A stretch of 64,000 nt of DNA, from assembly GCF_964355755.1 (NCBI RefSeq), contig NC_092674.1, positions 29,264,001 to 29,328,000 on the forward strand, written 5' to 3'. This document shows, piece after piece, positions 5,721 to 35,277 of this stretch. Both the position numbers and the translations under genes were made by a program. Position 1 is the first letter of the stretch; each line of letters starts with the position of its first letter. The notes under the pieces were generated by a model. The model saw only the letters and a program-made list of their open reading frames with translations, ran no database searches and was not told the origin of the DNA. This DNA comes from Antedon mediterranea. Lineage: Eukaryota > Animalia > Echinodermata.

Positions 5721-6690
5721 TCATGGATATAGTCTTGTTTTCTCCAAATATAATGGATATGGTATCATCCATATTGTGAGTGTACAACTGCAGAGAGGTT
5801 CTGTTGGTTCTGTCACTACCCGGATGCTTGTATTCCCAGTTGCATGCCAATACATATTAGATACATCACATGTTAAAAGTTGTTGGTCATTTTCCTGACG
5901 AATCTCCCGGATGCAGTATTGATTCGAGTTGTTGTGCATCTCATCTTCCGTACCATTTCTCGACCACAAGTACTCGACATTCAGAAGACTCCCTGCAGTT
6001 ATAGCACAAATGAAGCAAATTAATTTTAATCGATTTTGGAATAATATGGAGAGTATTCGTAAAACATCTTTGCACAGGTTGTTTTGCACTTTCACACATA
6101 AACGAAATATCCGTGTCATTTGTCATAACAGTGTAAGTGTAACTTTGATTTACTGTTTTGAGAAAACGTGTATTACCGTTTCCAACATCGTATAAGTAGA
6201 GTCTCACCTGGTCTGAAAGTTCATCCTCACAAAATACATTCACTAAATCTCCAATACCTGCGGACATAGGTATCGGACCGCAGACTATGTTTGACATACA
6301 TTTTGGAAGAACGACCAAATTTGTAACGTGCATTGTATACAATCCAGAATCTGCCAGGGCAGCATCAGTTATTGTCAGTGTATTGGTTGTGTAATTATTA
6401 TACGTTTCTTTACATTGTTTTATCGACAAACTAAAACGATCTTGACGTAGACCCAGTACATTTGTATTAAATTTATATTGGTAATTCGAAAGCCACAAGT
6501 CAGTACAAAATACACGTATATACCAAAATAGAACGGATTTTTCTCCTGCTGAACAATCAGTACTACATCTCATGGTCACGTTCTCTTCTTCATAAACCGT
6601 GACATTATGCATTACAACATTCACATTACAGGTTACACGATGCAGAGCCGAAATCAAGAATAGCACCACTGACAATGCAAACAACGTCAT
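5721..6690 (-). pseudogene. Ig-receptor family A, copy A1 (disrupted; could yield a truncated secreted product)
   Basis: Paralogous to A2/A3. A 27-nt in-frame deletion at ~6336 removes RCQVVEANY (second Ig Cys). A deletion/frameshift lies at ~6018-6030. The TM and tail are deleted at ~5741-5760. Confidence 0.85.
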
Positions 6691-7539
6691 TATCTTCGAC
6701 TACTGTAGGTATATAACCGTTATAGTTACAAACAATGCTATGATGTTCATTTTTTTTTTAAAGTGAATCAAAACTTACTTTCTATTATAAGAACTGTACC
6801 ATTAGGTACAGTTGGGTTTGTTTGTTCGATAATATTGTTTGTCATGGATAATATAATTTGATCAGTGGCAATCAACCAATATTAAAATGAAACTACTACA
6901 ATAATTACAAAACTAACAATAATGTAGACTATACACGCAATATTGCCTATATATCATAATCATATATTGCATATTTTAATTTATCTAGTAATATTATTAA
7001 TCACGTTTTAAAAGTACTACTATACTATTACGTAATATTACGATACGCAAGAGTTTCTATATTATTAGTTTGTCTTACACGATATGATATCGATATTGTT
7101 ACTGGCATAACATTAAATTTAGAATTATTATAATAGCTACCGTTAACATTGGTTAAATATATGAAAAGTTTCTTAACTTAAAAATAAGAAAGAGTTTAAC
7201 TCCGAATAAAGATAATTTGATATAATCATTATTATCTTATTATTTAAAGCTCGTTGTAATATATACAACATATATAGGTTAAAATATAAGTATAATCATT
7301 CTACAGTATAAATGTGTACATACGTATATAGGCCTATTATGTCATTTATTTGTCAAAATTGTCGTCGTTCGTTAAAATTACCTTGTTTCTTCAAAGTAAT
7401 ATATTATCTACTACCAAACTGGTGTCATGCTGCTCTGGCAACCGATTAACCAAAGAGTAATACGTGTAACAACAGTGAGCAAGGTGGCAGAGTGTAAAGA
7501 AATGTTCAGTTCGTTTTTATCATGGATAGTCTTGTTTTC

Positions 7540-8664
7540 TTACAGTCTACCGTCATATATATCAACAACCTCTATCTGTGCATCCTCTGTGTTGTCAGTA
7601 CATTTGATGTTGTTACACCTCTTACATATCACAATGAGAACAGCTATCATTAAGAAGACTTTGATTATCAATGGTATCATCCATATTGAGAGTGAACAAC
7701 TGCAGAGAGGTTCTGTTGGTCCTGTCACTACTCGGATGCTTGTGTTCCCAGTTGCATGCCAATATTTATTAGATACATCACATGATAGAAGTTGTTGGTC
7801 ACCTTCCTGACGAATCTCCCGGATGCAGTATTGATTTGAGTTGTGCATCTCGTATGTGGTACCATTTCTTGACCACGAGAACTCGACATTCAGAATACTC
7901 CCTGTAGTTATAGCACAAATGAAGCATACTTTATCACCATCGTAGAATGGCGTGTTGTTTAGCGGCAGGACTTGGATCGATGCTGTTTCAATAACATGGA
8001 GAGTATTCGTAAAACATTTTTGCCCTCGTACACTCTCACACATAAACGAAATACTTGTGTCATTTGTCATTACAGTGTAAACGTATCTTAGTGTTTCTTG
8101 GTTTAAGGTTTTGAGAAAACGTGTATTACTGTTTTCAACATTGTACAAGTAGAGTTTCAACGGGTCTGTATGTTCATCTTCACAAAATACATTCACTAAA
8201 TCACCAATACCTGCGGACATAGGTATCGGACCACAGACTATGTTTGACGTACATTTTGGAAGAACGACCAAATTTGTAACGTGCATTGTGTAGTTTGCTT
8301 CTACAACTTGGCATCTATACAATCCAGAATCTTCCTGGGCAGCATCAGTTATTGTCAGTGTATTTGTTGTGTAATTATTGTAAGTTTCAGTACACTGTTT
8401 TACCGACAAACTAAAACGATCTTGACGTTGACCCAGTGCATTTTTGTTAAATTTATATTGGTAATCAGAAAGCCACAAGTCAGTGCAAAATACACGTAGA
8501 AACCAAAATAAAACGGATTTTTCTCCTGTTGAACAATCGGCACTGCATCTCATGGTCACGTTCTCTCCTTCATAAACCGTAACATTATTGGCATCTGCAG
8601 CATTCTCATAACATGTTACACAACGCAAGGCCGAAATCAAGTACAGCACGTACAATGCAAGCAT
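7540..8664 (-). CDS. Ig-receptor A2: single-exon, 3 Ig-like domains, TM with Lys, short tail (374 aa)
   Basis: Signal peptide; V-like D1 (GENVTMRC..W..LTITDAAQEDSGLYRC); two further Cys-paired domains; TM IWMIPLIIKVFLMIAVLIVIC; tail ending DIYDGRL; many NxS/T sequons. Confidence 0.9.
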   Translation of the reverse strand: MLALYVLYLISALRCVTCYENAADANNVTVYEGENVTMRCSADCSTGEKSVLFWFLRVFCTDLWLSDYQYKFNKNALGQRQDRFSLSVKQCTETYNNYTTNTLTITDAAQEDSGLYRCQVVEANYTMHVTNLVVLPKCTSNIVCGPIPMSAGIGDLVNVFCEDEHTDPLKLYLYNVENSNTRFLKTLNQETLRYVYTVMTNDTSISFMCESVRGQKCFTNTLHVIETASIQVLPLNNTPFYDGDKVCFICAITTGSILNVEFSWSRNGTTYEMHNSNQYCIREIRQEGDQQLLSCDVSNKYWHATGNTSIRVVTGPTEPLCSCSLSIWMIPLIIKVFLMIAVLIVICKRCNNIKCTDNTEDAQIEVVDIYDGRL

Positions 8665-9225
8665 CCTGAATTTATCCGACTTGTAGAACCACTATTGTTT
8701 TAGTTACAAAAACTGCTATGATGTTCATTTTATTTCGAAAGTGAATCAAAACATACTTTCTATTATAGGAACTGTACCATTAGGTACAGTTGGGTTTGTT
8801 TGTTCGATAATATCGTTTGTTGGATAATATAATTTGATCAGTGGCAATCAACCAATATTAAAAATGAAACTACTACAATAATTACAAAACTAACAATAAT
8901 GTAGACTATACACGCAATATTGCGTAGGCATATCATAATCATATATTGCATATTTTAATTTATCTAGTAATATTATTAATCACGTTTTAAAAATACTACT
9001 ATACTATTAAGTAAAATTACGATACGCAAGAGTTTCTATATTATTAGTTTGTCTTACACGATATGATAACGATATTGTTACTGGCATAACATTAAATTTA
9101 GAATTATTATAATAGCTACCGTTAACATTGGTTAAATATATGAAAAGTTTCTTAACTTAAAAATGAGAAACAGTTTAACTCCGAATAAAGATACTTTGAT
9201 ATAATCATTATTATCTTATTATTTA

Positions 9226-9536
9226 CGAGTGAGTGAGTGGCCGAGCGGTTACAGTGGAACCGTAATTACGTAGCCATAACATCGGCAGGGGTTCGAGGCT
9301 CCATGGTTCTGGTGGTAGAACGAATCTTCTCGGATAAGGACTATAAACCGTAGGTCCAGTGTACACATAGCTCGTGTGCACTTTAAAGAACCTAGTACAT
9401 CTTTCGAGACGAGTAGGGGGTTACCCCGGTGTATTAGTACATCACAGCCACTGGGCCCTCTGGGAGACCAGTCTTTGACTGAAGAGATTACCCAGTATAA
9501 ATATATATTTCAATCAATCAATTTCAATTCAATTTC
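9226..9536 (+). mobile_element. tRNA-derived SINE with Deu/Nin-like central domain
   Basis: Box A TGGCCGAGCGG, box B GGTTCGAGGC, core ggataaggactataaaccgtaggtcc..gtgcactttaaagaacc, (caat)n-like tail. Absent from the paralogous spacer (empty site tattta|aagctcg at ~7246). Second copy at ~28478-28750. Confidence 0.85.
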
Positions 9537-9844
9537 AAGCTCGTTGTAATATATACATTATATATTGGTTAAAATATAAGTATAATCATTGTACAGTATA
9601 AATGTGTACATACGTATATAGGCCTAAACATAGGCCTATTATGTCATTTAGTTGTCAAAATTGTCGTCGTTCGTTAAAATTACCTTGTTTCTTCGAAGTA
9701 ATATATTATCTACAGTACTACCAAACTGGTGTCATGCTCTGGCAAACGATTAACAAAAGAGTGAATACGAGTAACAACGGTGAGCAAGGTGGCAGAGTGT
9801 AAAGAAATATTCAGCTCGTTTTTATCATGGATAGTCTGGTTTCC

Positions 9845-10960
9845 TTACAGTCTACCGTCATATATATCAACAACCTCTATCTGTGCATCCTCTGTGTTGT
9901 CAGTAGGTTTGATGTTGTTACACCTCTTACATATCACAATGAGAACAGCTATCATTAAAAAGACTTTGATTACCAATGGTATCATCCATATTGTGAGTGT
10001 ACAACTGGAGAGAGGTTCTGTTGGTTCTGTCAATACCCGGATGCTTGTGTTCCCAGTTGCATACCAATACGTATTAGATACATCACATGTTAAAACTTGT
10101 TGGTCATCTTCCTGACGAATCTCCCGGATGCAATATTGATTTGAGTTGTGCATCTCGTATGTGCTACCATTTCTCGACCACGAGTATTTGACATTCAGAA
10201 GACTCCCTGCAGTTATAGCACAAATGAAGCATATCTGGTCACCAGCGTAGAATGTAGTTCTATTGATCGGAACAACTTGAATCGATTTTGGAATAACATG
10301 GAGAGTGTTCGTAAAACATCTTTGCACAGGTTGTTTTCCACTTTCACACATAAACGAAATATCGGTGTCATTTGTCGTCACGGTGTAAGTGTAACTTTGA
10401 TTTGATGTTTTGAGAAAACGTGTATTACCGTTTCCAATATCGTATAAGTAGAGTCTAATCTCATCTGAAAGTTCATCCTCACAAAATACATTCACTAAAT
10501 CACCAATACCTGCGGACATGGGGATCGGATTGCAGACTATGTTTGATAGACATTTGGAAAGAATGACCAAATTCAATGTTAACAAAATCGTTGAGTTTGA
10601 AACTGTTATCATTCCACATTTATACCAACCAGAATCTACCTGGACAGCATCTGTTATTGTCAGTGTACTTGTTGTGTAATTATTATACGTTTCATTGCAT
10701 CGCTTTACCGATATATCAAAACGATCTTCTTGAGGCGAGTCCAATATATAATGGTTAAATTCATATCGGTGATCAGAAAGCCACACGTAAATGGAGCCTA
10801 TACGTAGATACCAAAGTAGAACGGTTTCTCCTGCTGAGCAATCTGAACTACATCTCATGGTAACGTTTTCTCCTTCATAAACCGTGACGTTATTCGTTTC
10901 AAAATGTATATGACATGTTACACAAACCAGGGCCAAAATCAAGTATAGCAACATAGACAT
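9845..10960 (-). CDS. Ig-receptor A3: divergent D1, TM with Lys, short tail (371 aa)
   Basis: Same architecture as A2. D1 is diverged (LRIGSIYVWLSDHRYEF..DSGWYKC); D2 resembles A1. Confidence 0.9.
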   Translation of the reverse strand: MSMLLYLILALVCVTCHIHFETNNVTVYEGENVTMRCSSDCSAGETVLLWYLRIGSIYVWLSDHRYEFNHYILDSPQEDRFDISVKRCNETYNNYTTSTLTITDAVQVDSGWYKCGMITVSNSTILLTLNLVILSKCLSNIVCNPIPMSAGIGDLVNVFCEDELSDEIRLYLYDIGNGNTRFLKTSNQSYTYTVTTNDTDISFMCESGKQPVQRCFTNTLHVIPKSIQVVPINRTTFYAGDQICFICAITAGSLLNVKYSWSRNGSTYEMHNSNQYCIREIRQEDDQQVLTCDVSNTYWYATGNTSIRVLTEPTEPLSSCTLTIWMIPLVIKVFLMIAVLIVICKRCNNIKPTDNTEDAQIEVVDIYDGRL

Positions 10961-11342
10961 CTTTTCAAGCGAACGTTTAATTTACTCTGACATGATATGA
11001 TTGCTTTGATTATCATCAACGGGTTTTTTTTTCGAAAGTAAAATCTCAATACCTATATTAAATATACACTGTACTTTAAATTGGTTTTGTTTTGACAAAC
11101 GACAAACATTCACTTTTCAACAAGTTTTCGTAAGCCACTAACACGAAACCCATATGATCAATTTTAAAAGTTGGATATGCGTTTGTGGAGTTGGCCTAAT
11201 TTAGATTAAAGCTTGTTGAAAAGAATCCACCTCACAACATTATGTAGGCCTCACTGCAGTATAATCATTGAGTTACAGACATTACATTGTGGTACCAACC
11301 TCGAGGTGTATATGCAAATTAATTTGATTCAGTTCACCCACG

Positions 11343-13226
11343 TTATAAATTGTCAGTTTCTTCGTAGTCATTATTAATATGATCCACAACCAAACCGATA
11401 CCATGATCAGGCAACCAATCTTGATATCTTGGTTCCTCTAAAACATGATATAATTGGCCCATCGTCGTATCCACAGATCGCTCTTCTCGAAGCGTGTCGT
11501 CATGAAGTCTTCGATTGTCAATAGGCTGTGACGTCATCTGGTGACGAGTGATTGCAGAATTCTGTTCAGCACTTATTTCATCATCAGGTATTTCTTGATA
11601 TACATTAGTTACGTCATCTGTGGACAATATTTTGTTATCTTTTTCTAACCATGATCTCTGTTCTTCTTTAACGGGTTCAACAACCTGCTGCGGAGTCCTC
11701 GGAGCAAATGAAGATCTCTGCCTTTGTATTCTTCTTCTATCATCGGATATTTCGTTATAAACACGCGATACATTATTTTTCGGGCGAATTGGTACTAACA
11801 ATATCTTGTCTTGTTCATAAACGTGTTCTTGATCTAGTTCACCAAAATGTCTTTTCCGATTATCTTGGATATTGCCATCGAATTCCCGTTCTGGTGACTG
11901 CTGCTCCTGATGCTGTCTACCAACAAGTGAATGATCTTGATTGTTGCTATCAACTTCTTGTTCTTGCTGTTCCTGGTCAAGTGTACTTAAAGGAACTGAT
12001 TGACGATTGCCATCAAATATTTGTGGCTGGTCCTCTTCTTCGACGCCGTGAGTAATTGTATGTGGATGGTTGATTCCATTGTGATAGATATTTTCTGCTA
12101 AAGTGACGCCTGTAGATTCATTCATTTGAATTAATTGTACATTGTCAGTGTTGATCAAGGGTTTAACGCGTATACAACTCTTACAGCATATCGCAAGGAG
12201 CACAACTATTATGACGCAGATGATGACTGGCACAAAGAACCATAACATACGTTTCCATCTTAGTAAATAATGTAAATCTATCACCAGTGTTGTATTTCCA
12301 GTTGCATGCCAATACTTATTAGATACAACACATGTTACAACTTGTTGGTCATCTTCCTGACGAATCTCCTGGATGCAGTATTGATTTGAGTTCTGCATCT
12401 CATCTTCGGTACTATTTCTCGACCAAAAGTACTCAACATCTACAAGACTCCCTGCAGTTATTATGCAAACAAAGCATACTTTATCACCAGCGTAGAATGG
12501 GGTGTTGTTTAGTGAAAGGACTTGGATGGATGTTGTTTCAATAACATGGAGAGTATTTGTAAAACATGTTTGTCCTTGTTTATTTTCACACATAAACGAA
12601 ATATCTGTGTCGTTTCTCGTAACGGTGTAATTGTAACTTAACTCTTTAGTATGGTTTAATATTGTAAGAAAACGTGTACCACCTTTTGTACCGAAATACA
12701 AGTGGAGTGTCAGCTGGTCTGAAAGTTCATCCTTACAAAATACATTCACTAAATCTCCAATACCTGCGGACTTGGGTATAGGACCGCAGACTATGTTTGA
12801 CGTACATTTTGGAAGAACGACCAAATTTGTAACGTGCATTGTGTAGTTTGCTTCTACAACTTGGCATCTATACAGTCCAGAATCTGCCTGGGCAGCATCA
12901 GTTATTATCAGTGTATTTGTTGTGTAATTATTATACGTTTCTTTACATTGTTTTACCGACAAACTAAAACGATCTTGACGTTGACTCAGTGCATTTTTGT
13001 TCAATTTATATTTGTAATCAGAAAGCCACAAGTCAGTGCAAAATACGCGTAGAGACCAAAATAAAACGGATTTTTCTCCTGTTGAACAATCAGCACTGCA
13101 TCTCATGGTAACGTTCTCTCCTTCATAAACTGTAACATTATTCGTTTCAAAATTCACATCACATGTTACACTACGTAGAGACGCCAAGTACAGTATAACC
13201 AACACAAGTGTTCTAGTAAGCGTCAT
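11343..13226 (-). CDS. Ig-receptor A4: long Tyr-rich cytoplasmic tail (627 aa from ATG 13226)
   Basis: Family A ectodomain; uncharged TM MLWFFVPVIICVIIVVLLAICC; ~275-aa Q/E-rich tail with ENIY, EHVY, VYNEI, VYQEI, LYHVL and NDYEE. The first true ATG precedes the signal peptide. Confidence 0.9.
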   Translation of the reverse strand: MTLTRTLVLVILYLASLRSVTCDVNFETNNVTVYEGENVTMRCSADCSTGEKSVLFWSLRVFCTDLWLSDYKYKLNKNALSQRQDRFSLSVKQCKETYNNYTTNTLIITDAAQADSGLYRCQVVEANYTMHVTNLVVLPKCTSNIVCGPIPKSAGIGDLVNVFCKDELSDQLTLHLYFGTKGGTRFLTILNHTKELSYNYTVTRNDTDISFMCENKQGQTCFTNTLHVIETTSIQVLSLNNTPFYAGDKVCFVCIITAGSLVDVEYFWSRNSTEDEMQNSNQYCIQEIRQEDDQQVVTCVVSNKYWHATGNTTLVIDLHYLLRWKRMLWFFVPVIICVIIVVLLAICCKSCIRVKPLINTDNVQLIQMNESTGVTLAENIYHNGINHPHTITHGVEEEDQPQIFDGNRQSVPLSTLDQEQQEQEVDSNNQDHSLVGRQHQEQQSPEREFDGNIQDNRKRHFGELDQEHVYEQDKILLVPIRPKNNVSRVYNEISDDRRRIQRQRSSFAPRTPQQVVEPVKEEQRSWLEKDNKILSTDDVTNVYQEIPDDEISAEQNSAITRHQMTSQPIDNRRLHDDTLREERSVDTTMGQLYHVLEEPRYQDWLPDHGIGLVVDHINNDYEETDNL

Positions 13227-13665
13227 TTTAGTGGATGGATGGTGTCGAACAATTATGAATGAATGAGTGAACGGAGAATATACTTTTTGTTCATACACTC
13301 ACTTTTCTGTGAAATATAATTTCTAAACCAGGAAATTGCGTAATTTGTTTCGTATCTGTTTCCGAAACAACATTATATAATAATATGCTCTATAATGTTA
13401 ATTGCGTATAGTTGATATTAGTATCTCGTGATGAGAAATAACTTATTTTCAAGGTAAACGTATTATCTTTCACGTATCAATGATACCAGCGGCTAACTAT
13501 AGTTTAGACTAGTGAGAGTAGTAAGTAGTGTACATGGATTGACACCGTGTAGAATTGTCCAGTCCATGGTATGGTCCGATACCCATTTTCCCTAAATTTA
13601 TAATAGTAATATTATACACACCTTCAACAGTAATAGACTTTGTCATCTCTCATTAATGTAAGCAT

Positions 13666-15042
13666 TTAATGACTGAGTGTTGTGCAGTATAATTGACCGC
13701 CCTGAGTAGATTTGAAACTATCATTAGAACCAGGCCGAGATACACGCATTCGCTCAATAGTATCCGCATACACGTGTCCTGGATAAGGTGGTTTTCTAAC
13801 TTCGTGCTCTTTGTCAGCTAGCCCAGAGTATTTCTTTTGATCATTCTGACGAACATCATTCTTAATAGTGTCGTAAATCGATTCCTTTCGGTCATTTGAC
13901 TGTCGTTTAAGCTTTCTTGTTTTGGAACAAATCACAACAGCCAGGCACACAATTGTGATTATGAAAACCGTATTAGTTGATAACAACAGAAGTATAATGA
14001 TAAACATGGTTGAAGGATCGGCGAACGTTGGTAGGTTAGAAGTAAGTCCAGTCGTCTGGTCAGATGAAATAAGTATCGGTGTTACCGCAACATTGATGGG
14101 CGCGCTTACAGCTGCATACTGGTGGCGGTGCTTAGTAGACACGTTGCAGAAAATGAGCTCCTTACCATTTGTAGCTTCAACCTCATTGACGCAGTACTGG
14201 TTTGATCCAGGATGCTGGTCATTTTCATGACTTGTTGACCACCAATATTCAACGTCTGTAAAACCTTCTCCACGGATTACGCAGACGAAACACATCCGGT
14301 TGACATCTTGTTGCCAGAGCTGTAGAACTTCAACTATCATCTTCTGGATAATATGCATGTTGTTTGTGACACAACCTCTTTGTTCTTGGTTCCGGTTATT
14401 CACCAGTTCACATACGAAATATACAATAGTATCATCACTGCTAACGGTGTAAACGTGACTTAGCGTCAGGTTTGTAATCTGACGGTTTACTGTCTGAAGT
14501 AAACGCTTTATATGATCTTTCTCGTTAAACGCATACAGATTTAACTCCGTATTTTGGTCTTTACCGTCAGCCACACACGACAAGGTCACTAAATCACCAG
14601 GAACGGCAGATATTGGTACTCGATTGCAGGTTGGATTTTGCAAACACAGATCAACAACTTTGAATTCTATAGAACTTACAGAATTCGTACCAGCAACACC
14701 GCATTGATATACCCCAGCATCGCCTTGATCCGCGCCAGTTATCGACAGTGTACTTGTGATGTTCATTACGTCGTCTGCGTTGCGTTTCTTGTAAACGGAC
14801 ACACTGTAACGGTTTTGGCGGGAATCCAGAAGATCAAGATTCAATTTGTCAAATACATCGACAAGCCACATTTTCCCGGTGTACCATAATATGCTTTCTG
14901 TATTCCCAGAAGACGTGATCGAACAACTGAGAGTCGCCGTTTCTCCTTTGTAAATTTGAAAATCTGGGGTTCGTACAATCTCAACCCCATCTGCATAATA
15001 TATGAACACTAACTGTAGAAATATTTTAGTAACAACTGCCAT
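13666..15042 (-). CDS. Ig-receptor family B, copy B1 (458 aa)
   Basis: Signal peptide; V-like domain (GETATLSC..W..LSITGADQGDAGVYQC); two more Ig-like domains; S/T stalk; TM; tail with SIYDTI, KYSGL, HVYAD and QLYC. Single ORF. Confidence 0.9.
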   Translation of the reverse strand: MAVVTKIFLQLVFIYYADGVEIVRTPDFQIYKGETATLSCSITSSGNTESILWYTGKMWLVDVFDKLNLDLLDSRQNRYSVSVYKKRNADDVMNITSTLSITGADQGDAGVYQCGVAGTNSVSSIEFKVVDLCLQNPTCNRVPISAVPGDLVTLSCVADGKDQNTELNLYAFNEKDHIKRLLQTVNRQITNLTLSHVYTVSSDDTIVYFVCELVNNRNQEQRGCVTNNMHIIQKMIVEVLQLWQQDVNRMCFVCVIRGEGFTDVEYWWSTSHENDQHPGSNQYCVNEVEATNGKELIFCNVSTKHRHQYAAVSAPINVAVTPILISSDQTTGLTSNLPTFADPSTMFIIILLLLSTNTVFIITIVCLAVVICSKTRKLKRQSNDRKESIYDTIKNDVRQNDQKKYSGLADKEHEVRKPPYPGHVYADTIERMRVSRPGSNDSFKSTQGGQLYCTTLSH

Positions 15043-15769
15043 TTTTAAAACAAAAAATTGTTTTTGCTAAATTATATTTCGCAATACGACTACTATCCAG
15101 GTCTCTCGTCCATGGAAAGACAAATGCAACATTGGTTTCTATAAATATTTAAAAGATAATCAAAAGTTATCTTATCTTTTTTTTTATTTCGAAAGCTATT
15201 ATAACTGATTCACTTTCAGATTAGATCAATGGCTATATGCGATTTGTTTAGATAATAATATAGTGTATACAAACAGTACGTACATACAATTATAGGCTAC
15301 ACAATCATTTGTTTTGATGTATTTGTGCGGGCCCTTGTGAAAAAAGTAATGTTATCAAACTGACCTGCGCCAGAGATGGTTTTGATCTTTAAAGAAGACT
15401 AACAAAAGATAAACAATTTAAATGAGTACCGCATCGCATAACTTTGTTTCTTGATTATGTATTATATTAAAAAAATGTAAAATTGCCAAGAACGCTTTTT
15501 TCACACGCATTCGTTTTGTCGCCGTTTTGTTGTTGTAGTTTTTTGACAGCTCATGAATATGTAAAACCAGTTGTTAACACACTAGCGTTGTGTGTGAACA
15601 CACACTAGCATTGTGTGTGAACGCACCTGTATTTGCTTTGCGTTGTAAAAAGACCTTGCTATTTGCAACGCAGTGTATATATACAGCAACTACATCAGTC
15701 CATAGAGATATTATAAAATCTCTTCTCGAGTATCTGAACAAAGAGAGGCAAAAGTTCAAACCGTTTCTC

Positions 15770-16026
15770 AGTACACGGATGTCAGCATCAAGGGAAAAAA
15801 AGCCAGTTTCTTCCCTAAACCGAGTAAGTACTAGGTTACAATAAAAATATAGAGGAAGCAAGCCTAGAATATAGATTGATTCCAATGGTGACAAGAAAGC
15901 AATATTTGGTAAACGATAAATTTTTAGGACCACAATGGAAATAAGTTTGCCGTCTCGGTACTTTTTTGTGTTTTTTATCCTATTGATTTTATATCAGAAT
16001 AAAGGAAAAAAAAAAAATGTGGATCT
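15770..16026 (-). pseudogene. Orphan, decayed copy of the ALG8 terminal exon
   Basis: Encodes IAFLSPLESIYILGLLPLYFYCNLV as in 25703-25964. Its 3' part is deleted and ~90 bp are inserted just after the acceptor. Confidence 0.85.
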
Positions 16027-16438
16027 CTGTAAAACAATAACAAAACAACTTTTTGAAACAATTTGTTAGTTTTAAAAAGCAATAATCTTTATTAATTAAA
16101 AAAAAAGTATTAAAGCATTCAATATTTCAAATTAATTGATCAACATTATTAAAACGTTTTCTATTCAATAGATCATAAAATATGTAAAAATAAAATAAAT
16201 TAGAATTCTATATAGGTATCAAAAGTAACAATGTTTTTACATTGTTTATTCACTTCAGAAATCTGACCAATCATTAGTTGTTTTAAAGTCATGTGATAAA
16301 ATGTAAATGATCTGAATGAATACGTGTAAATTACATACATTAAACAAGAAAGAGTTTTAAAGTTTAATAGTGAGCAAGTTAGAGTGTAAAGAAATGATAA
16401 ATTTCAGTTCGTTTTTATCATAGTTGTTGTTTTCTTAG

Positions 16439-17569
16439 TCAACGGTCATATATGTCAACAACCTCCATCTGTGCATCAACTGTGTTGTCAGTAGGTTTGA
16501 TATTGTTACACCTCTTACAGATCACAATGAGGACAGCTATCATTAAGAAGACTTTGATTACCAATGGTATCATCCATATTGTGAGTGTACAACTGCAGAG
16601 AGGTTCTGTTGGTTCTGCCACTACCCGGATGCTTGTATTCCCAGTTGCATGCCAATACTTATTAGATACAACACATGTTACAACTTGTTGGTCATCTTCC
16701 TGACGAATCTCCTGGATGCAGTATTGATTTGAGTTCTGCATCTCATCTTCGGTACTATTTCTCGACCAAAAGTACTCAACATCTACAAGACTCCCTGCAG
16801 TTATTATGCAAACAAAGCATACTTTATCACCAGCGTAGAATGGGGTGTTGTTTAGTGAAAGGACTTGGATGGATGTTGTTTCAATAACATGGAGAGTATT
16901 TGTAAAACATGTTTGTCCTTGTTTATTTTCACACATAAACGAAATATCTGTGTCGTTTCTCGTAACGGTGTAATTGTAACTTAACTCTTTAGTATGGTTT
17001 AATATTGTAAGAAAACGTGTACCACCTTTTGTACCGAAATACAAGTGGAGTGTCAGCTGGTCTGAAAGTTCATCCTTACAAAATACATTCACTAAATCTC
17101 CAATACCTGCGGACTTGGGTATAGGACCGCAGACTATGTTTGACGTACATTTTGGAAGAATGACCAAATTTGTAACGTGCATTGTGTAGTTTGCTTCTAC
17201 AACTTGGCAGCTATACAATCCAGAATCTGCCTGGGCAGCATCAGTTATTATCAGTGTATTTGTTGTGTAATTATTATACGTTTCTTTACATTGTTTTACC
17301 GACAAACTAAAACGATCTTGACGTTGACCCAGTGCATTTTTGTTCAATTTATATTTGTAATCAGAAAGCCACAAGTCAGTGCAAAATACGCGTAGAGACC
17401 AAAATATAACGGATTTTTCTCCTGTTGAACAATCAGCACTGCATCTCATGGTAACGTTCTCTCCTTCATAAACTGTAACATTATTCGTTTCAAAATTCAC
17501 ATCACATGTTACACTACGTAGAGACGCCAAGTACAGTATAACCAACACAAGTGTTCTAGTAAGCGTCAT
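16439..17569 (-). CDS. Ig-receptor A5: A4-type ectodomain with short Lys-TM tail (376 aa)
   Basis: Ectodomain differs from A4 at 4 residues. After YWHATGNT it switches to SIRVVAEPTEPLCSCTLTIWMIPLVIKV..DIYDR. Confidence 0.9.
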   Translation of the reverse strand: MTLTRTLVLVILYLASLRSVTCDVNFETNNVTVYEGENVTMRCSADCSTGEKSVIFWSLRVFCTDLWLSDYKYKLNKNALGQRQDRFSLSVKQCKETYNNYTTNTLIITDAAQADSGLYSCQVVEANYTMHVTNLVILPKCTSNIVCGPIPKSAGIGDLVNVFCKDELSDQLTLHLYFGTKGGTRFLTILNHTKELSYNYTVTRNDTDISFMCENKQGQTCFTNTLHVIETTSIQVLSLNNTPFYAGDKVCFVCIITAGSLVDVEYFWSRNSTEDEMQNSNQYCIQEIRQEDDQQVVTCVVSNKYWHATGNTSIRVVAEPTEPLCSCTLTIWMIPLVIKVFLMIAVLIVICKRCNNIKPTDNTVDAQMEVVDIYDR

Positions 17570-18011
17570 TTTAGTGGATGGATGGTGTCGAACAATTATG
17601 AATGAATGAGTGAACGGAGAATATACTTTTTGTTCATACACTCACTTATCTGTGAAATATAATTTCTAAACCAGGAAATTGCGTAATTTGTTTCGTATCT
17701 GTTTCCGAAACAACATTATATAATAATATGCTCTATAATGTTAATTGCGTATAGTTGATATTATTAGTATCTCGTGATGAGAAATAACTTATTTTCAAGG
17801 TAAACGTATTATCTTTCACGTATCAATGATACCAGCGGCTAACTATAGTTTAGACTAGTGAGAGTAGTAAGTAGTGTACATGGATTGACACCGTGTAGAA
17901 TTGTCCAGTCCATGGTATGGTCCGATACCCATTTTCCCTAAATTTATAATAGTAATATTATACACACCTTCAACAGTAATAGACTTTGTCATCTCTCATT
18001 AATGTAAGCAT

Positions 18012-19388
18012 TTAATGACTGAGTGTTGTGCAGTATAATTGACCGCCCTGAGTAGATTTGAAACTATCATTAGAACCAGGCCGAGATACACGCATTCGCT
18101 CAATAGTATCCGCATACACGTGTCCTGGATAAGGTGGTTTTCTAACTTCGTGCTCTTTGTCAGCTAGCCCAGAGTATTTCTTTTGATCATTCTGACGAAC
18201 ATCATTCTTAATAGTGTCGTAAATCGATTCCTTTCGGTCATTTGACTGTCGTTTAAGCTTTCTTGTTTTGGAACAAATCACAACAGCCAGGCACACAATT
18301 GTGATTATGAAAACCGTATTAGTTGATAACAACAGAAGTATAATGATAAACATGGTTGAAGGATCGGCGAACGTTGGTAGGTTAGAAGTAAGCCCAGTCG
18401 TCTGGTCAGATGAAATAAGTATCGGTGTTACCACAACTTTGATAGGCGCACTTGCAGCTGTATACTGGTGGCGGTGCTTAGTAGACACGTTGCAGAAAAT
18501 GAACTCCTTACCATTTGTACCTTCAACCTCATTGACGCAGTACTGGTTTGATCCCGGATGCTGGTCAATGTCACGACTTGTTGTCCACCAATATTCAACG
18601 TCTGTAAAACCGTCTCCACGAATTACGCAGACGAAACACACCCGGTTGACATCTTGTTGCCAAAGCTGTAGAACTTCAACTATCATCTTCTGGATAACAT
18701 GCATGTTGTTTGTGACACAACCTCTTTGTTCTTGGTTCCGCTCATTCACCAGTTCACATACGAAATACACAATAGTATCATCACTGCTGACGGTGTAAAC
18801 GTGGCTTAGCGTCAGGTTTGTAATCTGACGGTTTACTGTCTGAAGTAAACGCTTTATCTGATCTTTCGCGTCAAACGCATACAGACTTAACTCGGTATTT
18901 TGGTCTTTACCGTCAGCCACACACGACAAGGTCACTAAATCACCAGGAACAGCAGATATTGGTACTCGATTGCAGGTTGGGTTTTGCAAACACAGTTCAA
19001 CAACTTTGAATTCTATAGAACTTACAGAATTCGTACCAGCAACACCGCATTGATACACCCCAGCATCGCCTTGATCCGCGCCAGTTATCGACAGTGTACT
19101 TGTGATGTTCATTACGTCGTCTGCGTTGCGTTTCTTGTAAACGGACACACTGTAACGGTTTTGGCGGGAACCCAGAAGATCGAGATTCAATTTGTCAAAT
19201 ACATCGACAAGCCAAATTTGCCTGGTGTACCATAATATGCTTTCTGTATTTCCAGAAGACGTGATCGAACAACTGAGAGTCGCCGTTTCTCCTTTATAAA
19301 TCTGAAAATCTGGGGTTTGTACAATCTCAACCCCATCTGCATAATATATGAACACTAACTGTAGAAATATTTTAGTAACAACTGCCAT
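18012..19388 (-). CDS. Ig-receptor B2 (458 aa)
   Basis: Near-identical paralog of B1/B3 with an intact ORF. Confidence 0.9.
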   Translation of the reverse strand: MAVVTKIFLQLVFIYYADGVEIVQTPDFQIYKGETATLSCSITSSGNTESILWYTRQIWLVDVFDKLNLDLLGSRQNRYSVSVYKKRNADDVMNITSTLSITGADQGDAGVYQCGVAGTNSVSSIEFKVVELCLQNPTCNRVPISAVPGDLVTLSCVADGKDQNTELSLYAFDAKDQIKRLLQTVNRQITNLTLSHVYTVSSDDTIVYFVCELVNERNQEQRGCVTNNMHVIQKMIVEVLQLWQQDVNRVCFVCVIRGDGFTDVEYWWTTSRDIDQHPGSNQYCVNEVEGTNGKEFIFCNVSTKHRHQYTAASAPIKVVVTPILISSDQTTGLTSNLPTFADPSTMFIIILLLLSTNTVFIITIVCLAVVICSKTRKLKRQSNDRKESIYDTIKNDVRQNDQKKYSGLADKEHEVRKPPYPGHVYADTIERMRVSRPGSNDSFKSTQGGQLYCTTLSH

Positions 19389-20263
19389 TTTTAAAACAAA
19401 AAATTGTTTTTGCTAAATTAGATTTCGCAATACGACTACTATCCAGGTCTCTCGTCCATGGAAAGACAAATGCAACATTGGTTTCTATAAATATTTAAAA
19501 GATAATCAAAAGTTATCTTAAATGTTTTTTATTTCAGTATAACTGATTCACTTTCAGATTAGATATGGCTATATGCCATTTGTTTAGATAATATAATAGT
19601 TTATACAAACAGTAACATTCTGTTTATTTGAATACATATAAGCTACACATAGCTATAGGTTCCGATCATAATCATTTTTTTTGATGTTGCGGGCCCTTGT
19701 AAAAAAGTAATGTTATCAAACTGACCTGGGCCAGAGCTATATATGGTTTTGATCCTAAAAGAGAACTAACAACATATAAACAATTTAAATTAGTACTTTG
19801 TTTATGTATTATATCAAGCCAAGAAAGCTACAGTTTTGTTGTTTATTGACAGCTATGAATATGTAAAAGCCAGTTAACACACTAGCTTTGTGTGTGAACA
19901 CACACTATCGTTGTATGTGAACACACACTATCGTTGTCTGTGAACGCACTTGTATTTACTTTGCGTTGTAAATCGACCTTGCCATTTACAACGCAGTGTT
20001 ATATACAACAACTACATCAGTCCACAGAGATATTATAAAATCTCTGAGTATCTGAACAATGAGAGGCAAAAGCTCAAACCGTTTCTATGCATTTATTTTA
20101 TATATTCATTTTACCATTGATTTACAAAAAATTTAAAATAATTTCTTATACTATTTTAAATATATACTGTAATCTTTAACTTTTACTAATAAACCTTTGT
20201 TGTGACATTTTTCCTATTATTTGTAAGTAGTACTGAGGCCGAAATATAAATTTAACATGATTT

Positions 20264-20526
20264 CTGAATGCGCTTATCTTTCTGTGAATGTATCTTCCCC
20301 TCCCGCTTTAATGAATTATAATAAAATTTAAACCAGGCCCATGAAACACCTGCTGCACAGTAGACGGATGTCAGCATCAAGGGAAAGAAAGCCAGTTTCT
20401 CCCTAAACCAAGTAAGTAATGTACTAAGTTACAATACAAATATAGAGGAAGTAAGCCTAGAATAATATAGATTGATTCCAATGGTGACAAGAAAGCAATG
20501 TGTGGTAAATGATACGTTTTTGGATC
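20264..20526 (-). pseudogene. Orphan copy of the ALG8 terminal exon
   Basis: Nearly identical to 25703-25964 with the acceptor intact. It has a 1-nt deletion (ttctccctaaa vs ttctcccctaaa), a 3-nt insertion and TAG changed to CAG. Confidence 0.88.
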
Positions 20527-20828
20527 TCTGTAAAACAATAACAAAACAAACTTTTTGATACAAATTGTTAGTTTTAAAAAGCAATAATCTTTTTATAATT
20601 AATTATGAAAGTGATTGTTAAACAAAACAAAACTATAAACAATGAAACAGGAAGAATAATAAATAAATAAAAACAAAAAGAAGTAGCAGAGCATTAAATA
20701 TTTCAAATTAATTGATCAACATTATTAAAACGTTAACGTTTTTTATTCAATAGATCATACAATATGTAAAAATAAAATAAATTAGAATTCTATATAGGTA
20801 TCAAAAGTAACAATGTTTTTACATTGTT

Positions 20829-21665
20829 TTTATTTATTTTTATTTATTTTATTTATTTAATCGGTATAAAAAGACTCAAAATACAACTCATAGTTGAAAT
20901 GAAGAGCTTACATATGAAAATGATAATTCACATAGCCTAAACAAAGTTAAACGAAGAAAAAACACATTAAAGCCTAAGAAACAGTAATAATTACTGTATA
21001 ATTCGTTAAACTTAAAATTACTATAAAAAATGCACAAATTCTTAAATATACAATTTTAAAAAATAGAGACTAATATTAATAATCACATTATTTTTAAACA
21101 CCAATAAAATATATGTAAAATTCATTAAACTAAAAGTACAATAAAAATTGCACAAAATTCAAATTCAAAGGATGATATTAATAATTACAAATTCTTATAT
21201 TATATTTACAAATTTAAAAAATTGAATCTTATAAATCACATTTTTATAGTCCCATAAGTAGTTACAAAAAAAAATTTAAAGCATAAAACAACCACTTGAC
21301 AAAGAGACAATAGAACATACTCTTCGAAATGTCTTTAAAGGTTAATTGTCCAAATCTATTCATTATTTAAGAGTCCAATAACAGTTGGAATTGTTGATGC
21401 AGCAAGTCTTTTAGTCCGACATCGTGGCACATCAAACTTATTAACTTTACGCAAACACCTTGTCGGCTTTTCTTTTTCAGGGATCCATTCCTTAAAGCGA
21501 TCCGACTTTAGCAGCCCCTTTCCAAAGTTATAAAGAAGAACCTGACGTCTATGCTGCAATGTCTTTAACTTGAGGGTTTCAAGTGATTTTGCGTAACTAA
21601 CATAGTTTTGATATCCAATAATAAGTTTTACAACACGCTTTTGGATGAATTCAAGTTGATCACTC
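20829..21665 (-). mobile_element. 5'-truncated non-LTR retrotransposon (CR1/L2/Crack-like ORF2 C-terminus, 3' UTR, (TAAA)n tail)
   Basis: Peptide LEFIQKRVVKLI..Y..SL..LKL.TL..RR..PRCRTKR..STIP..LLN. The tttat repeats at 20830-20859 form the tail. Flanked by tgttt on both sides; empty site attgtttattcacttcag at ~16241. Confidence 0.85.
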
Positions 21666-21859
21666 TGTTTATTCACTTCAGAAATCTGACCAATCATTGG
21701 TTGTTTTAAAGTCATGTGATAAATGTAAATGATCTGAATGATCACGTGTAAATTACATACATTAAACAAGAAAGAGTTTTAAAGTTTAATAGTGAGCAGT
21801 TAGGGTGTAAAGGAATGATAAATTTCAGTTCGTTTTTATCATAGTTGTTGTTTTCTTAG

Positions 21860-22990
21860 TCAACGGTCATATATGTCAACAACCTCCATCTGTGCATCAA
21901 CTGTGTTGTCAGTAGGTTTGATGTTGTTACACCTCTTACAGATCACAATGAGGACAGCTACCATAAAGAAGACTTTGATTACCAATGGTATCATCCATAT
22001 TGTGAGTGTACAACTGCAGAGAGGTTCTGTTGGTTCTGCCACTAACCGGATACTTGTATTCCCAATTGCATGCCAATACTTATTAGATACATCACATGTT
22101 ACAAGTTGTTGGTCATCTTCCTGACGAATCTCCTGGATGCAGTATTGATTTGAGTTCTGCATCTCATCTTCGGTACTATTTCTCGACCAAAAGTACTCAA
22201 CATCTACAAGACTCCCTGCAGTTATTATGCAAACAAAGCATACTTTATCACCAGCGTAGAATGGGGTGTTGTTTAGTGAAAGGACTTGGATGGATGTTGT
22301 TTCAATAACGTGGAGAGTATTTGTAAAACATGTTTGTCCTTGTTTATTTTCACACATAAACGAAATATCTGTGTCGTTTCTCGTAACGGTGTAAATGTAA
22401 CTTAACTCTTTAGTATGGTTTAATATTGTAAGAAAACGTGTACCACCTTTTGTACCAAAATACAAGTGGAGTGTCAGCTGGTCTGAAAGTTCATCCTTAC
22501 AAAATACATTCACTAAATCTCCAATACCTGCGGACTTGGGTATACGACCGCAGACTATGTTTGACGTACATTTTGGAAGAACGACCAAATTTGTAACGTG
22601 CATTGTGTAGTTTGCTTCTACAACTTGGCAGCTATACAGTCCAGAATCTGCCTGGGCAGCATCAGTTATTATCAGTGTATTTGTTGTGTAATTATTGTAA
22701 GTTTCATTACATTCTTTTACCGACAAACTAAAACGATCTTGACGTTGACCCAGTGCATTTTTGTTAAATTTATATTTGTAATCAGAAAGCCACAAGTCAG
22801 TGCAAAATACGCGTAGAGACCACAGTAGATTGGATTTGTTTCCTGCTGAACAATCTGAACTGCATCTCATGGTAACGTTCTCTCCTTCATAAACCGTGAC
22901 ATTATTCGTTTCCACATTCTCATCACATGTTACACTACGCAGAGACGTCAAGTACAGTATAATCAACACAAGTATTCTAGTAAGCGTCAT
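21860..22990 (-). CDS. Ig-receptor A6: short Lys-TM tail (376 aa)
   Basis: Paralog of A5 with a variant D1 N-terminal patch (CSSDCSAGNKSNLLW). Confidence 0.9.
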   Translation of the reverse strand: MTLTRILVLIILYLTSLRSVTCDENVETNNVTVYEGENVTMRCSSDCSAGNKSNLLWSLRVFCTDLWLSDYKYKFNKNALGQRQDRFSLSVKECNETYNNYTTNTLIITDAAQADSGLYSCQVVEANYTMHVTNLVVLPKCTSNIVCGRIPKSAGIGDLVNVFCKDELSDQLTLHLYFGTKGGTRFLTILNHTKELSYIYTVTRNDTDISFMCENKQGQTCFTNTLHVIETTSIQVLSLNNTPFYAGDKVCFVCIITAGSLVDVEYFWSRNSTEDEMQNSNQYCIQEIRQEDDQQLVTCDVSNKYWHAIGNTSIRLVAEPTEPLCSCTLTIWMIPLVIKVFFMVAVLIVICKRCNNIKPTDNTVDAQMEVVDIYDR

Positions 22991-23421
22991 TTTTAGTGGA
23001 TGGATGGTGTCGAACAATTATGAATGAAAGAGTTAACGGAGAATATACTTTTTGTGCATACACTCACTTATCTGTGAAATATAATTTCTAAACCAGGAAA
23101 TTGCGTAATTTGTTTCGTATCTGTTTAATTAATTATTAATTGCGTATAGTTGATATTAGTATCTCGTGATGAGAAATAACTTATTTTCAAGGTAAACATA
23201 TCGTATTATCTGTCACGTATCAATGACACCAGCGGCAAACTCTTATAGTTTAGACTAAGCAGTAGTGAGAGTAGTAAGTAGTGTAAATGCATTAACACCG
23301 TGTAGAATTATCCAGTCCATGGTATGGTCCGATACCTCTTTTCCCAAAATTTATAATAATAATAATATGATACACACCTTCAACAGTAATAGACTTTGTC
23401 ATCTCTTATTAATGTAAGCAT

Positions 23422-24798
23422 TTAATGACCGAGTGTTGTGCAGTATAATTGACCGCCCTGAGTAGATTTGAAACTGTCATTAGAACCAGCCCGAGATACA
23501 CGCATTCGCTCAATAGTATCCGCATACACGTGTCCCGGATAAGGTGCTTTTCTAACTTCGTGCTCTTTGTCAGCTAGCCCAGAGTATTTCTTTTGATCAT
23601 TCTGACGAACATCATTCTTAATAGTGTCATAAATCGATTCCTTTCGGTCATTTGACTGTCGTTTAAGCTTTCTTGTTTTGGAACAAATCACAACAGCCAG
23701 GCACACAATTGTGATTATGAAAACCGTATTAGTTGATAACAACAGAAGTAGAATGATAAACATGGTTGACGGATCGTCGAACGTTGGTAGGTTAGAAGTA
23801 AGCCCAGTCGTCTGGTCAGATGAAATAAGTATCGGTGTTACCAAAACATTGATGGGCGCACTTGCAGCTGCATACTGGTGGCGGTGCTTAGTAGACACGT
23901 TGCAGAAAATGAACTCCTTACCATTTGTACCTTCAACCTCATTGACGCAGTACTGGTTTGATCCCGGATGCTGGTCAATGTCACGACTTGTTGTCCACCA
24001 ATATTCAACGTCTGTAAAACCGTCTCCACGAATTACGCAGACGAAACACACCCGGTTGACATCTTGTTGCCAAAGCTGTAGAACTTCAACTATCATCTTC
24101 TGGATAACATGCATGTTGTTTGTGACACAACCTCTTTGTTCTTGGTTCCGCTCATTCACCAGTTCACATACGAAATACACAATAGTATCATCACTGCTGA
24201 CGGTGTAAACGTGACTTAGCGTCAGGTTTGTAATCTGACGGGTTACTGTCTGAAGTAAACGCTTTATCTGATCTTTCTCGTTAAACGCATACAGATTTAA
24301 CTCCGTATTTTGGTCTTTACCGTCAGCCACACAAGACAACGTCACTAAATCACCAGGAACGGCAGATAGTGGTACTCGATTGCAGGTTGGATTTTGCAAA
24401 CACAGTTCAACAACTTTGAATTCTATAGAACTTACAGAATTCGTACCAGCAACACCGCATTGATACACCCCAGCATCCCCTTGATCCGCGCCAGTTATCG
24501 ACAGTGTACTTGTGATGTTCATTACGTCGTCTGCGTTGCGTTTCTTGTAAACGGACACACTGTAACGGTTTTGGCGGAAACCCAGAAGATCAAGATTCAA
24601 TTTGTCAAATACATCGACAAGCCAAATTTGCCCGGTGTACCATAATATGCTTTCTGTATTCCCAGAAGACGTGATCGAACAACTGAGAGTCGCCGTTTCT
24701 CCTTTGTAAATTTGAAAATCTGGGGTTCGTACAATCTCAACCCCATCTGCATAATATATGAACACTAACTGTAGAAATATTTTAGTAACAACTGCCAT
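23422..24798 (-). CDS. Ig-receptor B3 (458 aa)
   Basis: Near-identical paralog of B1/B2 with an intact ORF. Confidence 0.9.
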   Translation of the reverse strand: MAVVTKIFLQLVFIYYADGVEIVRTPDFQIYKGETATLSCSITSSGNTESILWYTGQIWLVDVFDKLNLDLLGFRQNRYSVSVYKKRNADDVMNITSTLSITGADQGDAGVYQCGVAGTNSVSSIEFKVVELCLQNPTCNRVPLSAVPGDLVTLSCVADGKDQNTELNLYAFNEKDQIKRLLQTVTRQITNLTLSHVYTVSSDDTIVYFVCELVNERNQEQRGCVTNNMHVIQKMIVEVLQLWQQDVNRVCFVCVIRGDGFTDVEYWWTTSRDIDQHPGSNQYCVNEVEGTNGKEFIFCNVSTKHRHQYAAASAPINVLVTPILISSDQTTGLTSNLPTFDDPSTMFIILLLLLSTNTVFIITIVCLAVVICSKTRKLKRQSNDRKESIYDTIKNDVRQNDQKKYSGLADKEHEVRKAPYPGHVYADTIERMRVSRAGSNDSFKSTQGGQLYCTTLGH

Positions 24799-25702
24799 TT
24801 TTAAAACAAAAAATTGTTTTTGCTAAATTATATTTCGCAATACGACTACTATCCAGGTCTCTCGTCCATGGAAAGACAAATGCAACATTGGTTTCTATAA
24901 ATATTTAAAAGATAATCAAAAGTTATCTTAAATGTTTTTTTTTTATTTCGAAAGCTATTACAGTATAACTGATTCACTTTCAGATTAGATATGGCTATAT
25001 GCTATTTGTTTAGATAATATAATAGTTTATACAAACAGTAACATTCTGTTTATTTGAATACATATAAGCTACACATACAGTAGCTATAGGTTCCTATCAT
25101 AATCATTTGTTTTGATGTTGCGGGCCCTTGTAAAAAAGTAATGTTATCAAACTGACCTGGGCCAGAGCATATAAACAATTTAAATTAGTACATGTATCGC
25201 ATCGCAAAACTTTGTTTATGTATTATGTCAAGACAAGAAAGCTACAGTTTTGTTGTTTATTGACAGCTTATGAATATGTAAAAGCCAGTTGTTAACACAC
25301 TAGCTTTGTGTGTGAACACACACTATCGTTGTATGTGAACACACACTATCGTTGTATGTGAACACACACTATCGTTGTGTATGAACGCATTTGTATTTAC
25401 TTTGCGTTGTAAATCGACCTTGCCATTTACACCGCAGTGTTATATACAACAACTACATCAGTCCACAAAGATATTACAAAATCTCTGAGTATCTGAACAA
25501 AGAGAGGCAAAAGCTCAAACCGTTTCTCTGCACTTATTTTATATATTTATTTTATCATTGATTTAAAAACAAATTTAAAATAATTTCGTATACTATTTTA
25601 AATATATACTGTATTCTTTAACATTTACTAATAAACCTTTGTTGTGACATTTTTCCTATTATTTGTAAGTAGTACTGAGGCCGAAATATAAAGTTAACAT
25701 TT

Positions 25703-31611
<5,909 letters not shown>

Positions 31612-35171: not shown

Positions 35172-35277
35172 GATGATGATGATTCGGATGATGATGATGA
35201 TCCAGATGATGATGATCCAGATGATGATGATGATTTAGATAGTATAACAAATGCATATGATGATGACGATGATGATG
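35172..35277. repeat. (GAT/TCA)n microsatellite encoding poly-Ser in GPCR copy 1
   Basis: Runs of gatgatgat; the matching region of copy 2 (~42682-42710) is short. Confidence 0.9.

Follow-up and report, generated by a model that had tools for sequence, protein, structure and literature searches.

Predicted tandem intronless receptor genes of Antedon mediterranea with nearly identical three-immunoglobulin ectodomains and different membrane and cytoplasmic ends

We have analysed a 64,000-nucleotide stretch of DNA from Antedon mediterranea (contig NC_092674.1, forward-strand positions 29,264,001 to 29,328,000), which is called the window throughout and within which all positions are given. The window is eukaryotic DNA with a G+C content of ~34%. 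Between 5.7 and 24.8 kb it holds an array of genes that are each a single open reading frame (ORF), all on the minus strand, and this report is concerned with two of them, A4 and A5. The stop-to-stop ORF of A4 runs from 11343 to 13298 with a Met codon at 13226, and that of A5 from 16439 to 17641 with a Met codon at 17569, so that the predicted products are 627 and 376 aa long. In both genes the leader, three immunoglobulin (Ig)-like domains, the membrane helix and the tail lie in one frame. The features of the two genes are as follows.

11343-13226, minus strand: A4, single ORF of 627 codons plus stop, with an uncharged helix and a long tail
12291..13226, minus strand: A4 leader and ectodomain, codons 1-312
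12183..12248, minus strand: uncharged A4 membrane helix, residues 327-348
11346..12182, minus strand: A4 cytoplasmic tail, 279 aa; this DNA is unique in the window
13227..13665, minus strand: 5' flank of A4, up to the stop codon of the neighbouring gene B1
16439-17569, minus strand: A5, single ORF of 376 codons plus stop, with a Lys-containing helix and a 25-aa tail
16517..16585, minus strand: A5 membrane helix, residues 329-351

By their sequence, A4 and A5 are real tandem intronless three-Ig receptor genes, with ectodomains that are nearly identical and membrane and cytoplasmic ends that are different. A blastn comparison of 11000-15500 with 15501-20500 gave a single alignment, in which 12290-15429 is paired with 16633-19796 at 96.2% identity over 3175 columns. 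Identity per 100 columns is 97-100 from 12292 to 13988 and 93-99 from 13989 to 15188, and it drops to 36/100 just below 12291. Within codons 1-312 only six of the 936 bases differ and the synonymous divergence (dS) is 0.010. The six changes comprise four replacements (L55I, S81G, R120S and V137I) and two silent changes, in codons 118 and 310, which leaves 308 of the 312 residues identical. All four replacements are within the first, V-type domain, for which the chance is 0.04, with too few events to rely on. An earlier reading of this DNA, made from the letters alone (the sequence-only reading), had reported four ectodomain differences and an abrupt divergence at YWHATGNT, and both observations hold. 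Identity extends as far as the first base of codon 313, a codon for Thr in A4 and Ser in A5. Past the junction 16 of 61 aligned residues (~26%) are identical and dS is ~1.2.

Beyond this point the two proteins have different predicted signalling ends. Ile336 in the A4 helix faces Lys339 of A5 (codon AAA, 16553-16555) in the alignment. The A4 tail is acidic (54 D+E, 29 K+R) and contains seven Tyr residues, at positions 381, 470, 490 (YNEI), 543 (YQEI), 593 (YHVL), 601 and 621. The sequence-only reading had described the uncharged helix and the YNEI, YQEI and YHVL motifs correctly, but its tail of ~275 aa is in fact 279 aa long. It had also assigned a Lys helix and a short tail to A5 and to a further array gene, A6, and this is what we find: A5 has Lys339 and the 25-aa tail, and the same helix is present in A6 as well as in A2 and A3. 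The Lys-type genes have two stalk cysteines just outside the membrane, Cys325 and Cys327 (CSC, within 16517-16600 in A5), which A4 lacks; disulfide bonds through them could join the receptor to a partner or to a second molecule of its own kind. A structural model of A5 has three beta domains and a helix at residues 328-355, with a mean predicted local distance difference test score (pLDDT) of only 61.

The near-identity of A4 and A5 could in principle be an assembly artefact, either a misjoin or two haplotypes of one gene placed in tandem. A long, nearly exact repeat invites assembly errors, and the individual is highly heterozygous, as seen in run X1 (same organism label as the window), where the A4 tail is present as two alleles. 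However, contigs from runs X6 and X7, which are two samples of one study and carry another organism label (organism B), bridge the A4 junction. Each of the two runs has a 230-base contig that covers 12171-12400 with 16 mismatches and no gap (~93% identity), with 120 of its bases to the tail side of the junction and 110 to the ectodomain side. Other X6 and X7 contigs leave the ectodomain at exactly 12290 and continue into a Lys-type stalk. The two junction types are therefore found in contigs that are not part of the assembly. In X1 the depth is 94 on a shared 425-base ectodomain contig (12340-12764, no mismatch) and 53 on the single-copy contig covering 11000-11612. This ratio of about two fits two ectodomain copies and one tail copy, whereas tandem haplotypes would give half. 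The 3' flanks of the A4 and A5 copies also differ and each is continuous in the window. Misassembly, which the sequence-only reading had named as a finding that would overturn it, is made very improbable by the junction contigs and the X1 depth.

The pattern of variation indicates that the A4 tail is real coding sequence, because divergent alleles keep the frame through five indels with lengths that are multiples of three. The two X1 alleles (11583-12244) are 6-7% apart and each is at about half depth: the first has the window sequence at a depth of 32-34, and the second has 12-15 mismatches per ~210 bases at a depth of 27-29. X6 and X7 show a third set of tail variants, and many of the variants of the second X1 allele are common to the organism-B runs. 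The five indel places in the second X1 allele and in X6/X7, all of them net multiples of three, are at 11612, 11772-11774, 11825, 11911 and 11964-11965. At the local base composition, 315 open codons would arise by chance with a probability of 1.5e-10; there are 17 and 32 stops in the other two frames. Substitutions were counted from the 40 places listed of 86 that differ. The 38 that fall in the tail comprise 12 silent changes and 26 replacements; none creates a stop and none changes a Tyr codon. Read by eye, the loose end of the X6/X7 contigs at 11375 encodes the same C-terminus without a change of frame; it has two additional codons and retains the last Tyr. A single-sequence model of the A4 helix plus tail gives a pLDDT of 91-96 in the helix and below 50 for 212 of the 318 residues, weak evidence that the tail may be disordered. 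Self-BLASTP detected no internal repeats in the tail. We conclude that the tail is fast-evolving and probably disordered, and that its frame is nevertheless kept.

Polymorphism at the A4 locus is very high. None of the runs listed is on record as RNA. A further run, X5, the RNA nature of which is only guessed, has a depth of ~5 over genic sequence and some flank, including 266 tail bases (11954-12219), and was used neither way.

It is quite unlikely that A4 is a silent or decaying relic, that is, an old long-tailed member of the array which is no longer expressed and had its 5' part overwritten by chance. The rough ratio of replacement to silent rates (dN/dS) in the tail, 0.56, is not significantly below the neutral value (binomial p 0.07), the tail has no homologue in the collections searched, and decay does occur in the array, as in the frameshifted, truncated gene A1 (5760-6675). 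A relic would not be expected, however, to retain an intact 627-codon frame with a tail so improbably open by chance, nor variants that include only frame-keeping indels and, among those listed, no stop. The 5' flank of A4 also matches the 5' flank of A5 (17570-18011) at 438 of 442 alignment columns.

The array as a whole contains six A genes and three B genes within 5760-24798. Every array ORF consists of a leader, three Ig-like domains, one membrane helix and a tail, A1 being a truncated relic. The remaining members are as follows.

5760-6675, minus strand: A1, A-type frameshifted and truncated relic, which ends within the stalk without a membrane helix
7540-8664, minus strand: A2, a Lys-helix A gene
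9845-10960, minus strand: A3, a Lys-helix A gene
13666-15042, minus strand: B1, three-Ig receptor of 458 aa, next upstream of A4
18012-19388, minus strand: B2, the upstream neighbour of A5
21860-22990, minus strand: A6, a Lys-helix gene with B3 next upstream
23422-24798, minus strand: B3, upstream of A6

The array is organised as A-B units, with one B gene directly upstream of each of A4, A5 and A6. A6 and A5 are identical at 292 of 312 ectodomain residues and at 61 of 64 residues of the membrane-plus-tail part. Other genes of the window are split by introns, among them an ALG6/ALG8 glycosyltransferase gene with pieces at 25706-26029 and 27593-27895 and genes with MIT_C and CH domains, and the intronless state therefore belongs to the receptor family and not to the genome. 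The pieces in question are given on one line.

25706-26029, 27593-27895, 47053-47349 and 53647-53922: exon-sized pieces of ordinary genes (ALG6/ALG8, MIT_C, CH domain)

A 23-base tandem repeat of 2.2-4 copies is present at the upstream end of each A-B unit (15577-15626, 19877-19949 and 25295-25386) and may be a substrate or a mark of unequal exchanges. Between A4 and A5, the segment 15914-16147 has an X1 depth of 8006, compared with ~50 for single-copy sequence, is high in all four runs and has many loose ends; it is a very high-copy dispersed repeat. Elsewhere in the window, 33309-35692 and 40754-43249 (minus strand) hold a tandem pair of secretin/adhesion-type seven-transmembrane receptor genes (7tm_2, E 3e-24 and 3e-25), each made of two long ORFs and each with an N-terminal somatomedin-B domain. 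Rfam gave no match anywhere in the window.

The duplicated A-B units show two tiers of divergence, which allow the age of the A4 and A5 ends to be compared with that of their ectodomains.

12291..13990 (= 16634 to ~18336): recently homogenised block, comprising the A ectodomain, the 5' flank and the 3' end of the B gene
13991..15429 (= ~18337-19796): older part of the duplicated unit, comprising the B ectodomain and sequence upstream

Ten of 1700 columns differ in the first part (12291-13990) as against 48 of 1198 in the second (13991-15188; Fisher p 1e-10). A block that is ~0.6% diverged and includes 439 intergenic bases thus lies inside a duplicate that is ~4% diverged. The membrane ends are related at a much greater distance. 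BLASTP of A4 against the Lys-type helix and juxtamembrane stretch finds 12/38 identities (E 1e-6) and a common pattern, CKxCxxxKPxxNT, with Ile336 in place of Lys339, and tblastn of the A4 helix region against the four intact Lys-helix genes (A2, A3, A5 and A6) gives E-values of 5e-4 to 0.011. This indicates that the membrane segments of A4 and of the Lys-type genes are homologous and diverged from each other long ago. The A4 type of junction is present at ~93% identity in organism B, and by this measure the A4 architecture therefore predates, by far, the 0.6% divergence between A4 and A5. The distal A4 tail has no relative elsewhere in the window by blastn or tblastn, and no remnant of a long tail was found downstream of the Lys-helix genes by tblastn. 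The A4 and B tails have a shared look (E[NS]IY, xVY, GQLY), but kinship between them is unsupported, the BLASTP comparison not being significant (best E 2.8).

The recent event is a non-allelic exchange which homogenised the ectodomain end and is best explained by gene conversion. The 3' ends of the long-tailed A gene, itself old, and of the Lys-helix A genes would have diverged long ago, and the 5' parts of these genes, flank included, would have been homogenised repeatedly by conversion or unequal exchange from codon 312 upstream. Such exchanges would stop at codon 313 because homology ends there. The sequence-only reading had likened the genes to vertebrate paired receptors created by tail swapping. 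The likeness in anatomy stands, but an origin by tail swapping is not supported, in view of the homologous helix and the older junction. The data instead resemble 'merohomogenisation', in which signalling ends remain distinct and the binding part evolves in concert: the block is 0.6% diverged against 4%, the junction is at ~93% in organism B and the helices share 12/38 residues.

Similar exchanges appear to have affected the rest of the array. Patches of 99-100% identity, in non-coding flanks as well, are found in changing pairs of the three A-B units and mark ongoing conversion. B1 and B2 (13669-15042 and 18015-19388) have one silent difference in the stalk, helix and tail and 41 differences, 25 of them replacements, in the ectodomain, and over part of its ectodomain B2 instead matches B3 at 99-100% identity. 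On this comparison the B genes are a mosaic of conversion tracts, and diversification of the binding part is possible for the B ectodomain.

These patches bear on a different explanation of the A4/A5 identity, namely that it is a neutral by-product of frequent conversion or unequal crossing-over. Both genes may then work, but no selection for a common ligand and no functional pairing would be entailed. All pairwise combinations of the three A-B units, flanks included, show the mosaic patches, and the homogenised block takes in the 439 intergenic bases and the 3' end of the B gene; a block of any origin must stop at codon 313 anyway, with only ~26% residue homology beyond. The maintenance of the long-tailed form in frame, in divergent alleles and in organism B, speaks against this explanation, as do reports of homogenisation limited to the binding part in functional vertebrate pairs (PMC3210942, PMC5701461), although neutrality is still compatible with both. 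We consider incidental homogenisation possible but doubtful.

The Lys helix and short tail are strongly conserved. Between A2, A3, A5 and A6, 52-61 of 64-66 residues are identical in this part, compared with 194-292 of 300-312 in the ectodomain, and the replacement rate (dN) is 0.02-0.07 in the helix and tail and 0.03-0.22 in the ectodomain. This is as expected of a helix that would dock to a partner chain. For signalling, A5 would depend on a partner whose membrane segment has an acidic residue to pair with Lys339, and so would A2, A3 and A6; we propose such a chain because vertebrate activating receptors pair in this way with DAP12 or FcR-gamma. A4 would signal alone, with the tyrosines on its putatively disordered acidic tail becoming phosphorylated and recruiting SH2 proteins. 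Its YNEI, YQEI and YHVL motifs are bare Yxx[IL] sites. We take YNEI and YQEI to resemble Src-family SH2 sites and YHN to be a Grb2-type site, and presumably the bare sites could equally be sorting signals. From the sequence, the effect of A4 might be inhibition, activation or uptake. In Botryllus, bare Yxx 'core' motifs are described as being of unknown function and have been linked to an activating role (PMC12065747). The matching 5' flanks predict that A4 and A5 would be co-expressed.

The B genes have an uncharged helix and contain the sole canonical immunoreceptor tyrosine-based motif of the inhibitory type (ITIM) of the cluster, SIYDTI, which is followed 11 residues on by YSGL. Their ectodomains are 33-34% identical to that of A5. 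The cluster thus holds three predicted signalling types, namely the Lys-helix A genes, the long-tailed A4 and the ITIM-bearing B genes, and it may be B that acts as inhibitory partner to the Lys-helix A genes, despite the 33-34% ectodomain identity.

Taken together, the data support the view that A4 and A5 carry the sequence anatomy of a paired receptor set. Paired activating and inhibitory receptors are defined in section 3 of PMC3533184. Of the features of such receptors, the conserved extracellular sequence is present (308/312 residues, 930/936 bases), the genes lie in a small cluster with an A4-A5 spacing of 4343 bases, and A5, likewise A2, A3 and A6, combines a short tail with a Lys in the helix. 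Several observations weigh against a functional pair. None of the seven cytoplasmic Tyr residues of A4 fits the canonical ITIM, [ILVS]xYxx[ILV], as the sequence-only reading had recognised in calling the A4 motifs non-canonical. With a canonical ITIM present on B, A4 need not be the inhibitory partner. No plausible ORF for an acidic-helix chain with an immunoreceptor tyrosine-based motif of the activation type (ITAM; Yxx[LI]x6-9Yxx[LI]) was found within the window. Conversion is rife among all three A-B units, and the A4/A5 identity may not reflect selection at all. Evolution of the tail is fast, by substitution counts that cover 40 of the 86 differing places, and one listed X7 variant turns the +3 Ile of YNEI into Met. 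Finally, no X1 contig bridges 12290 among the 27 pieces listed of 42. On balance we give an even chance to A4 and A5 being a functional paired set that would bind the same ligand and send different signals. A broader proposal is more speculative: a lineage outside the jawed vertebrates may have built a complete natural killer (NK)-like system from its own orphan intronless Ig family, with Lys-helix receptors that need an acidic-helix chain, adjoining ITIM-bearing B receptors and a conversion-matched long-tailed A4. We put this forward tentatively and think it rather unlikely as a whole.

The family belongs to the immunoglobulin superfamily (IgSF) with a V-set first domain, and it is only generic Ig models that match. 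In A4 the Pfam scores are 35.8 bits for Ig_3 (cut-off 30), 33.4 for ig (21.8) and 29.8 for V-set (26), all above the cut-offs. Foldseek finds three-Ig ectodomains (Necl-4, nectins, SIRP-alpha, CEACAM6 and CD22) with E-values of 1e-12 to 1e-9 and TM-scores of 0.2-0.3. The family profile gives weak, mixed matches in the PDB, to FCRL5 (4e-8), the T-cell receptor V-alpha domain (3e-7), CEA (9e-7), Fc-epsilon-RI-alpha and NITR (9e-5). Beyond the generic Ig fold we detected no specific kinship to KIR, LILR, Siglec, SIRP, CEACAM, NITR or FCRL. A5, the family alignment and the A4 tail had no match at E <= 0.001 in a collection of 5.8 billion clusters, the A4 tail had no relative among 1.84 billion representatives, and scans of metagenome contigs returned no relative of the receptor family; the collections may be poor in animal genomes. 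In the Atlas, A5 leads only to generic chordate IgSF clusters (0.95-0.96), and the A4 tail reaches at most 0.84 (MUC1 tail, SCIMP and poxvirus A36R-like), which we treat as leads only.

The combination of one binding face with two signalling ends, with ectodomains kept alike by conversion, is a hallmark of innate immune regulation in vertebrates. Here the same genetic anatomy is found in a family without detectable relatives and is built from single-exon genes. If A4 and A5 are expressed and functional, they would be a tractable case for charged-residue coupling outside the vertebrates, and for finding which adaptor is used, and they would test whether selection on receptors of opposing effect generally leads to a homogenised binding part. 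If the NK-like system is true, charged-helix adaptor coupling and merohomogenisation would be either convergent or much older than thought. A receptor cluster as polymorphic as this could serve allorecognition or pathogen sensing. In open-access papers and preprints we found no intronless three-Ig family with Lys-helix and long-tailed forms on a common ectodomain, and no charged-membrane-residue coupling in an invertebrate.

The closest parallels are with the IgSF pairs of vertebrates (KIR, LILR/PIR, SIRP, PILR, CD300 and Siglec). As in these, the ectodomains are near-identical, the genes form a small cluster, one member is short-tailed with a Lys helix and the other long-tailed, with Tyr residues in the tail and no charge in the helix. 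The long tail of A4 is unlike theirs in having no ITIM, and the array genes are single ORFs from leader to tail, whereas vertebrate paired-receptor genes are split domain by domain. Gene conversion confined to the ligand-binding part has been described for Siglec-11 and Siglec-16, and common ligand binding and co-expression have been shown for Siglecs (PMC5701461). For KLRC, KLRA, PIR and others, concerted evolution of the ligand-binding part has been termed merohomogenisation (PMC3210942). A4 and A5 resemble these cases in that conversion appears to be confined to the binding part and the signalling ends are distinct, the 0.6% block ending at codon 313 within a 4% duplicate. In contrast with them, the block of A4 and A5 extends further, into the 5' flank and into the neighbouring B gene at its 3' end.

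Among invertebrates, pairs of this kind have partial counterparts. Homogenised-binding-part pairs are well known in vertebrates and IgSF receptors with ITIM- or ITAM-bearing tails are known in Hydractinia, Botryllus and oysters. The Hydractinia Alr genes (PMC9546547) likewise form a tandem invertebrate family; their products are IgSF membrane proteins in which the first domain is V-set and some of the tails bear ITAM or ITIM motifs. Unlike the array genes they are multi-exon and alternatively spliced and have an Fn3-like third extracellular region, and in excerpts of that paper no use of the word 'charged' concerned a membrane helix. In the Botryllus fester/FcoR system (PMC12065747), fester has Ig and sushi domains and three membrane helices and the FcoRs have a sushi domain and alternative splicing between the Ig/sushi region and the membrane helix, whereas the array genes are three-Ig, single-helix and intronless. 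The likeness is one of architecture; no sequence relation was found and none was sought directly. Like A5 and A4, however, a short-tailed receptor gene there stands beside a long-tailed IgSF gene outside the vertebrates, and the Botryllus long tails carry an ITIM, a hemITAM or a bare Yxx[ILV] 'core' motif, which alleles and splice forms swap on one ectodomain (PMC12065747).

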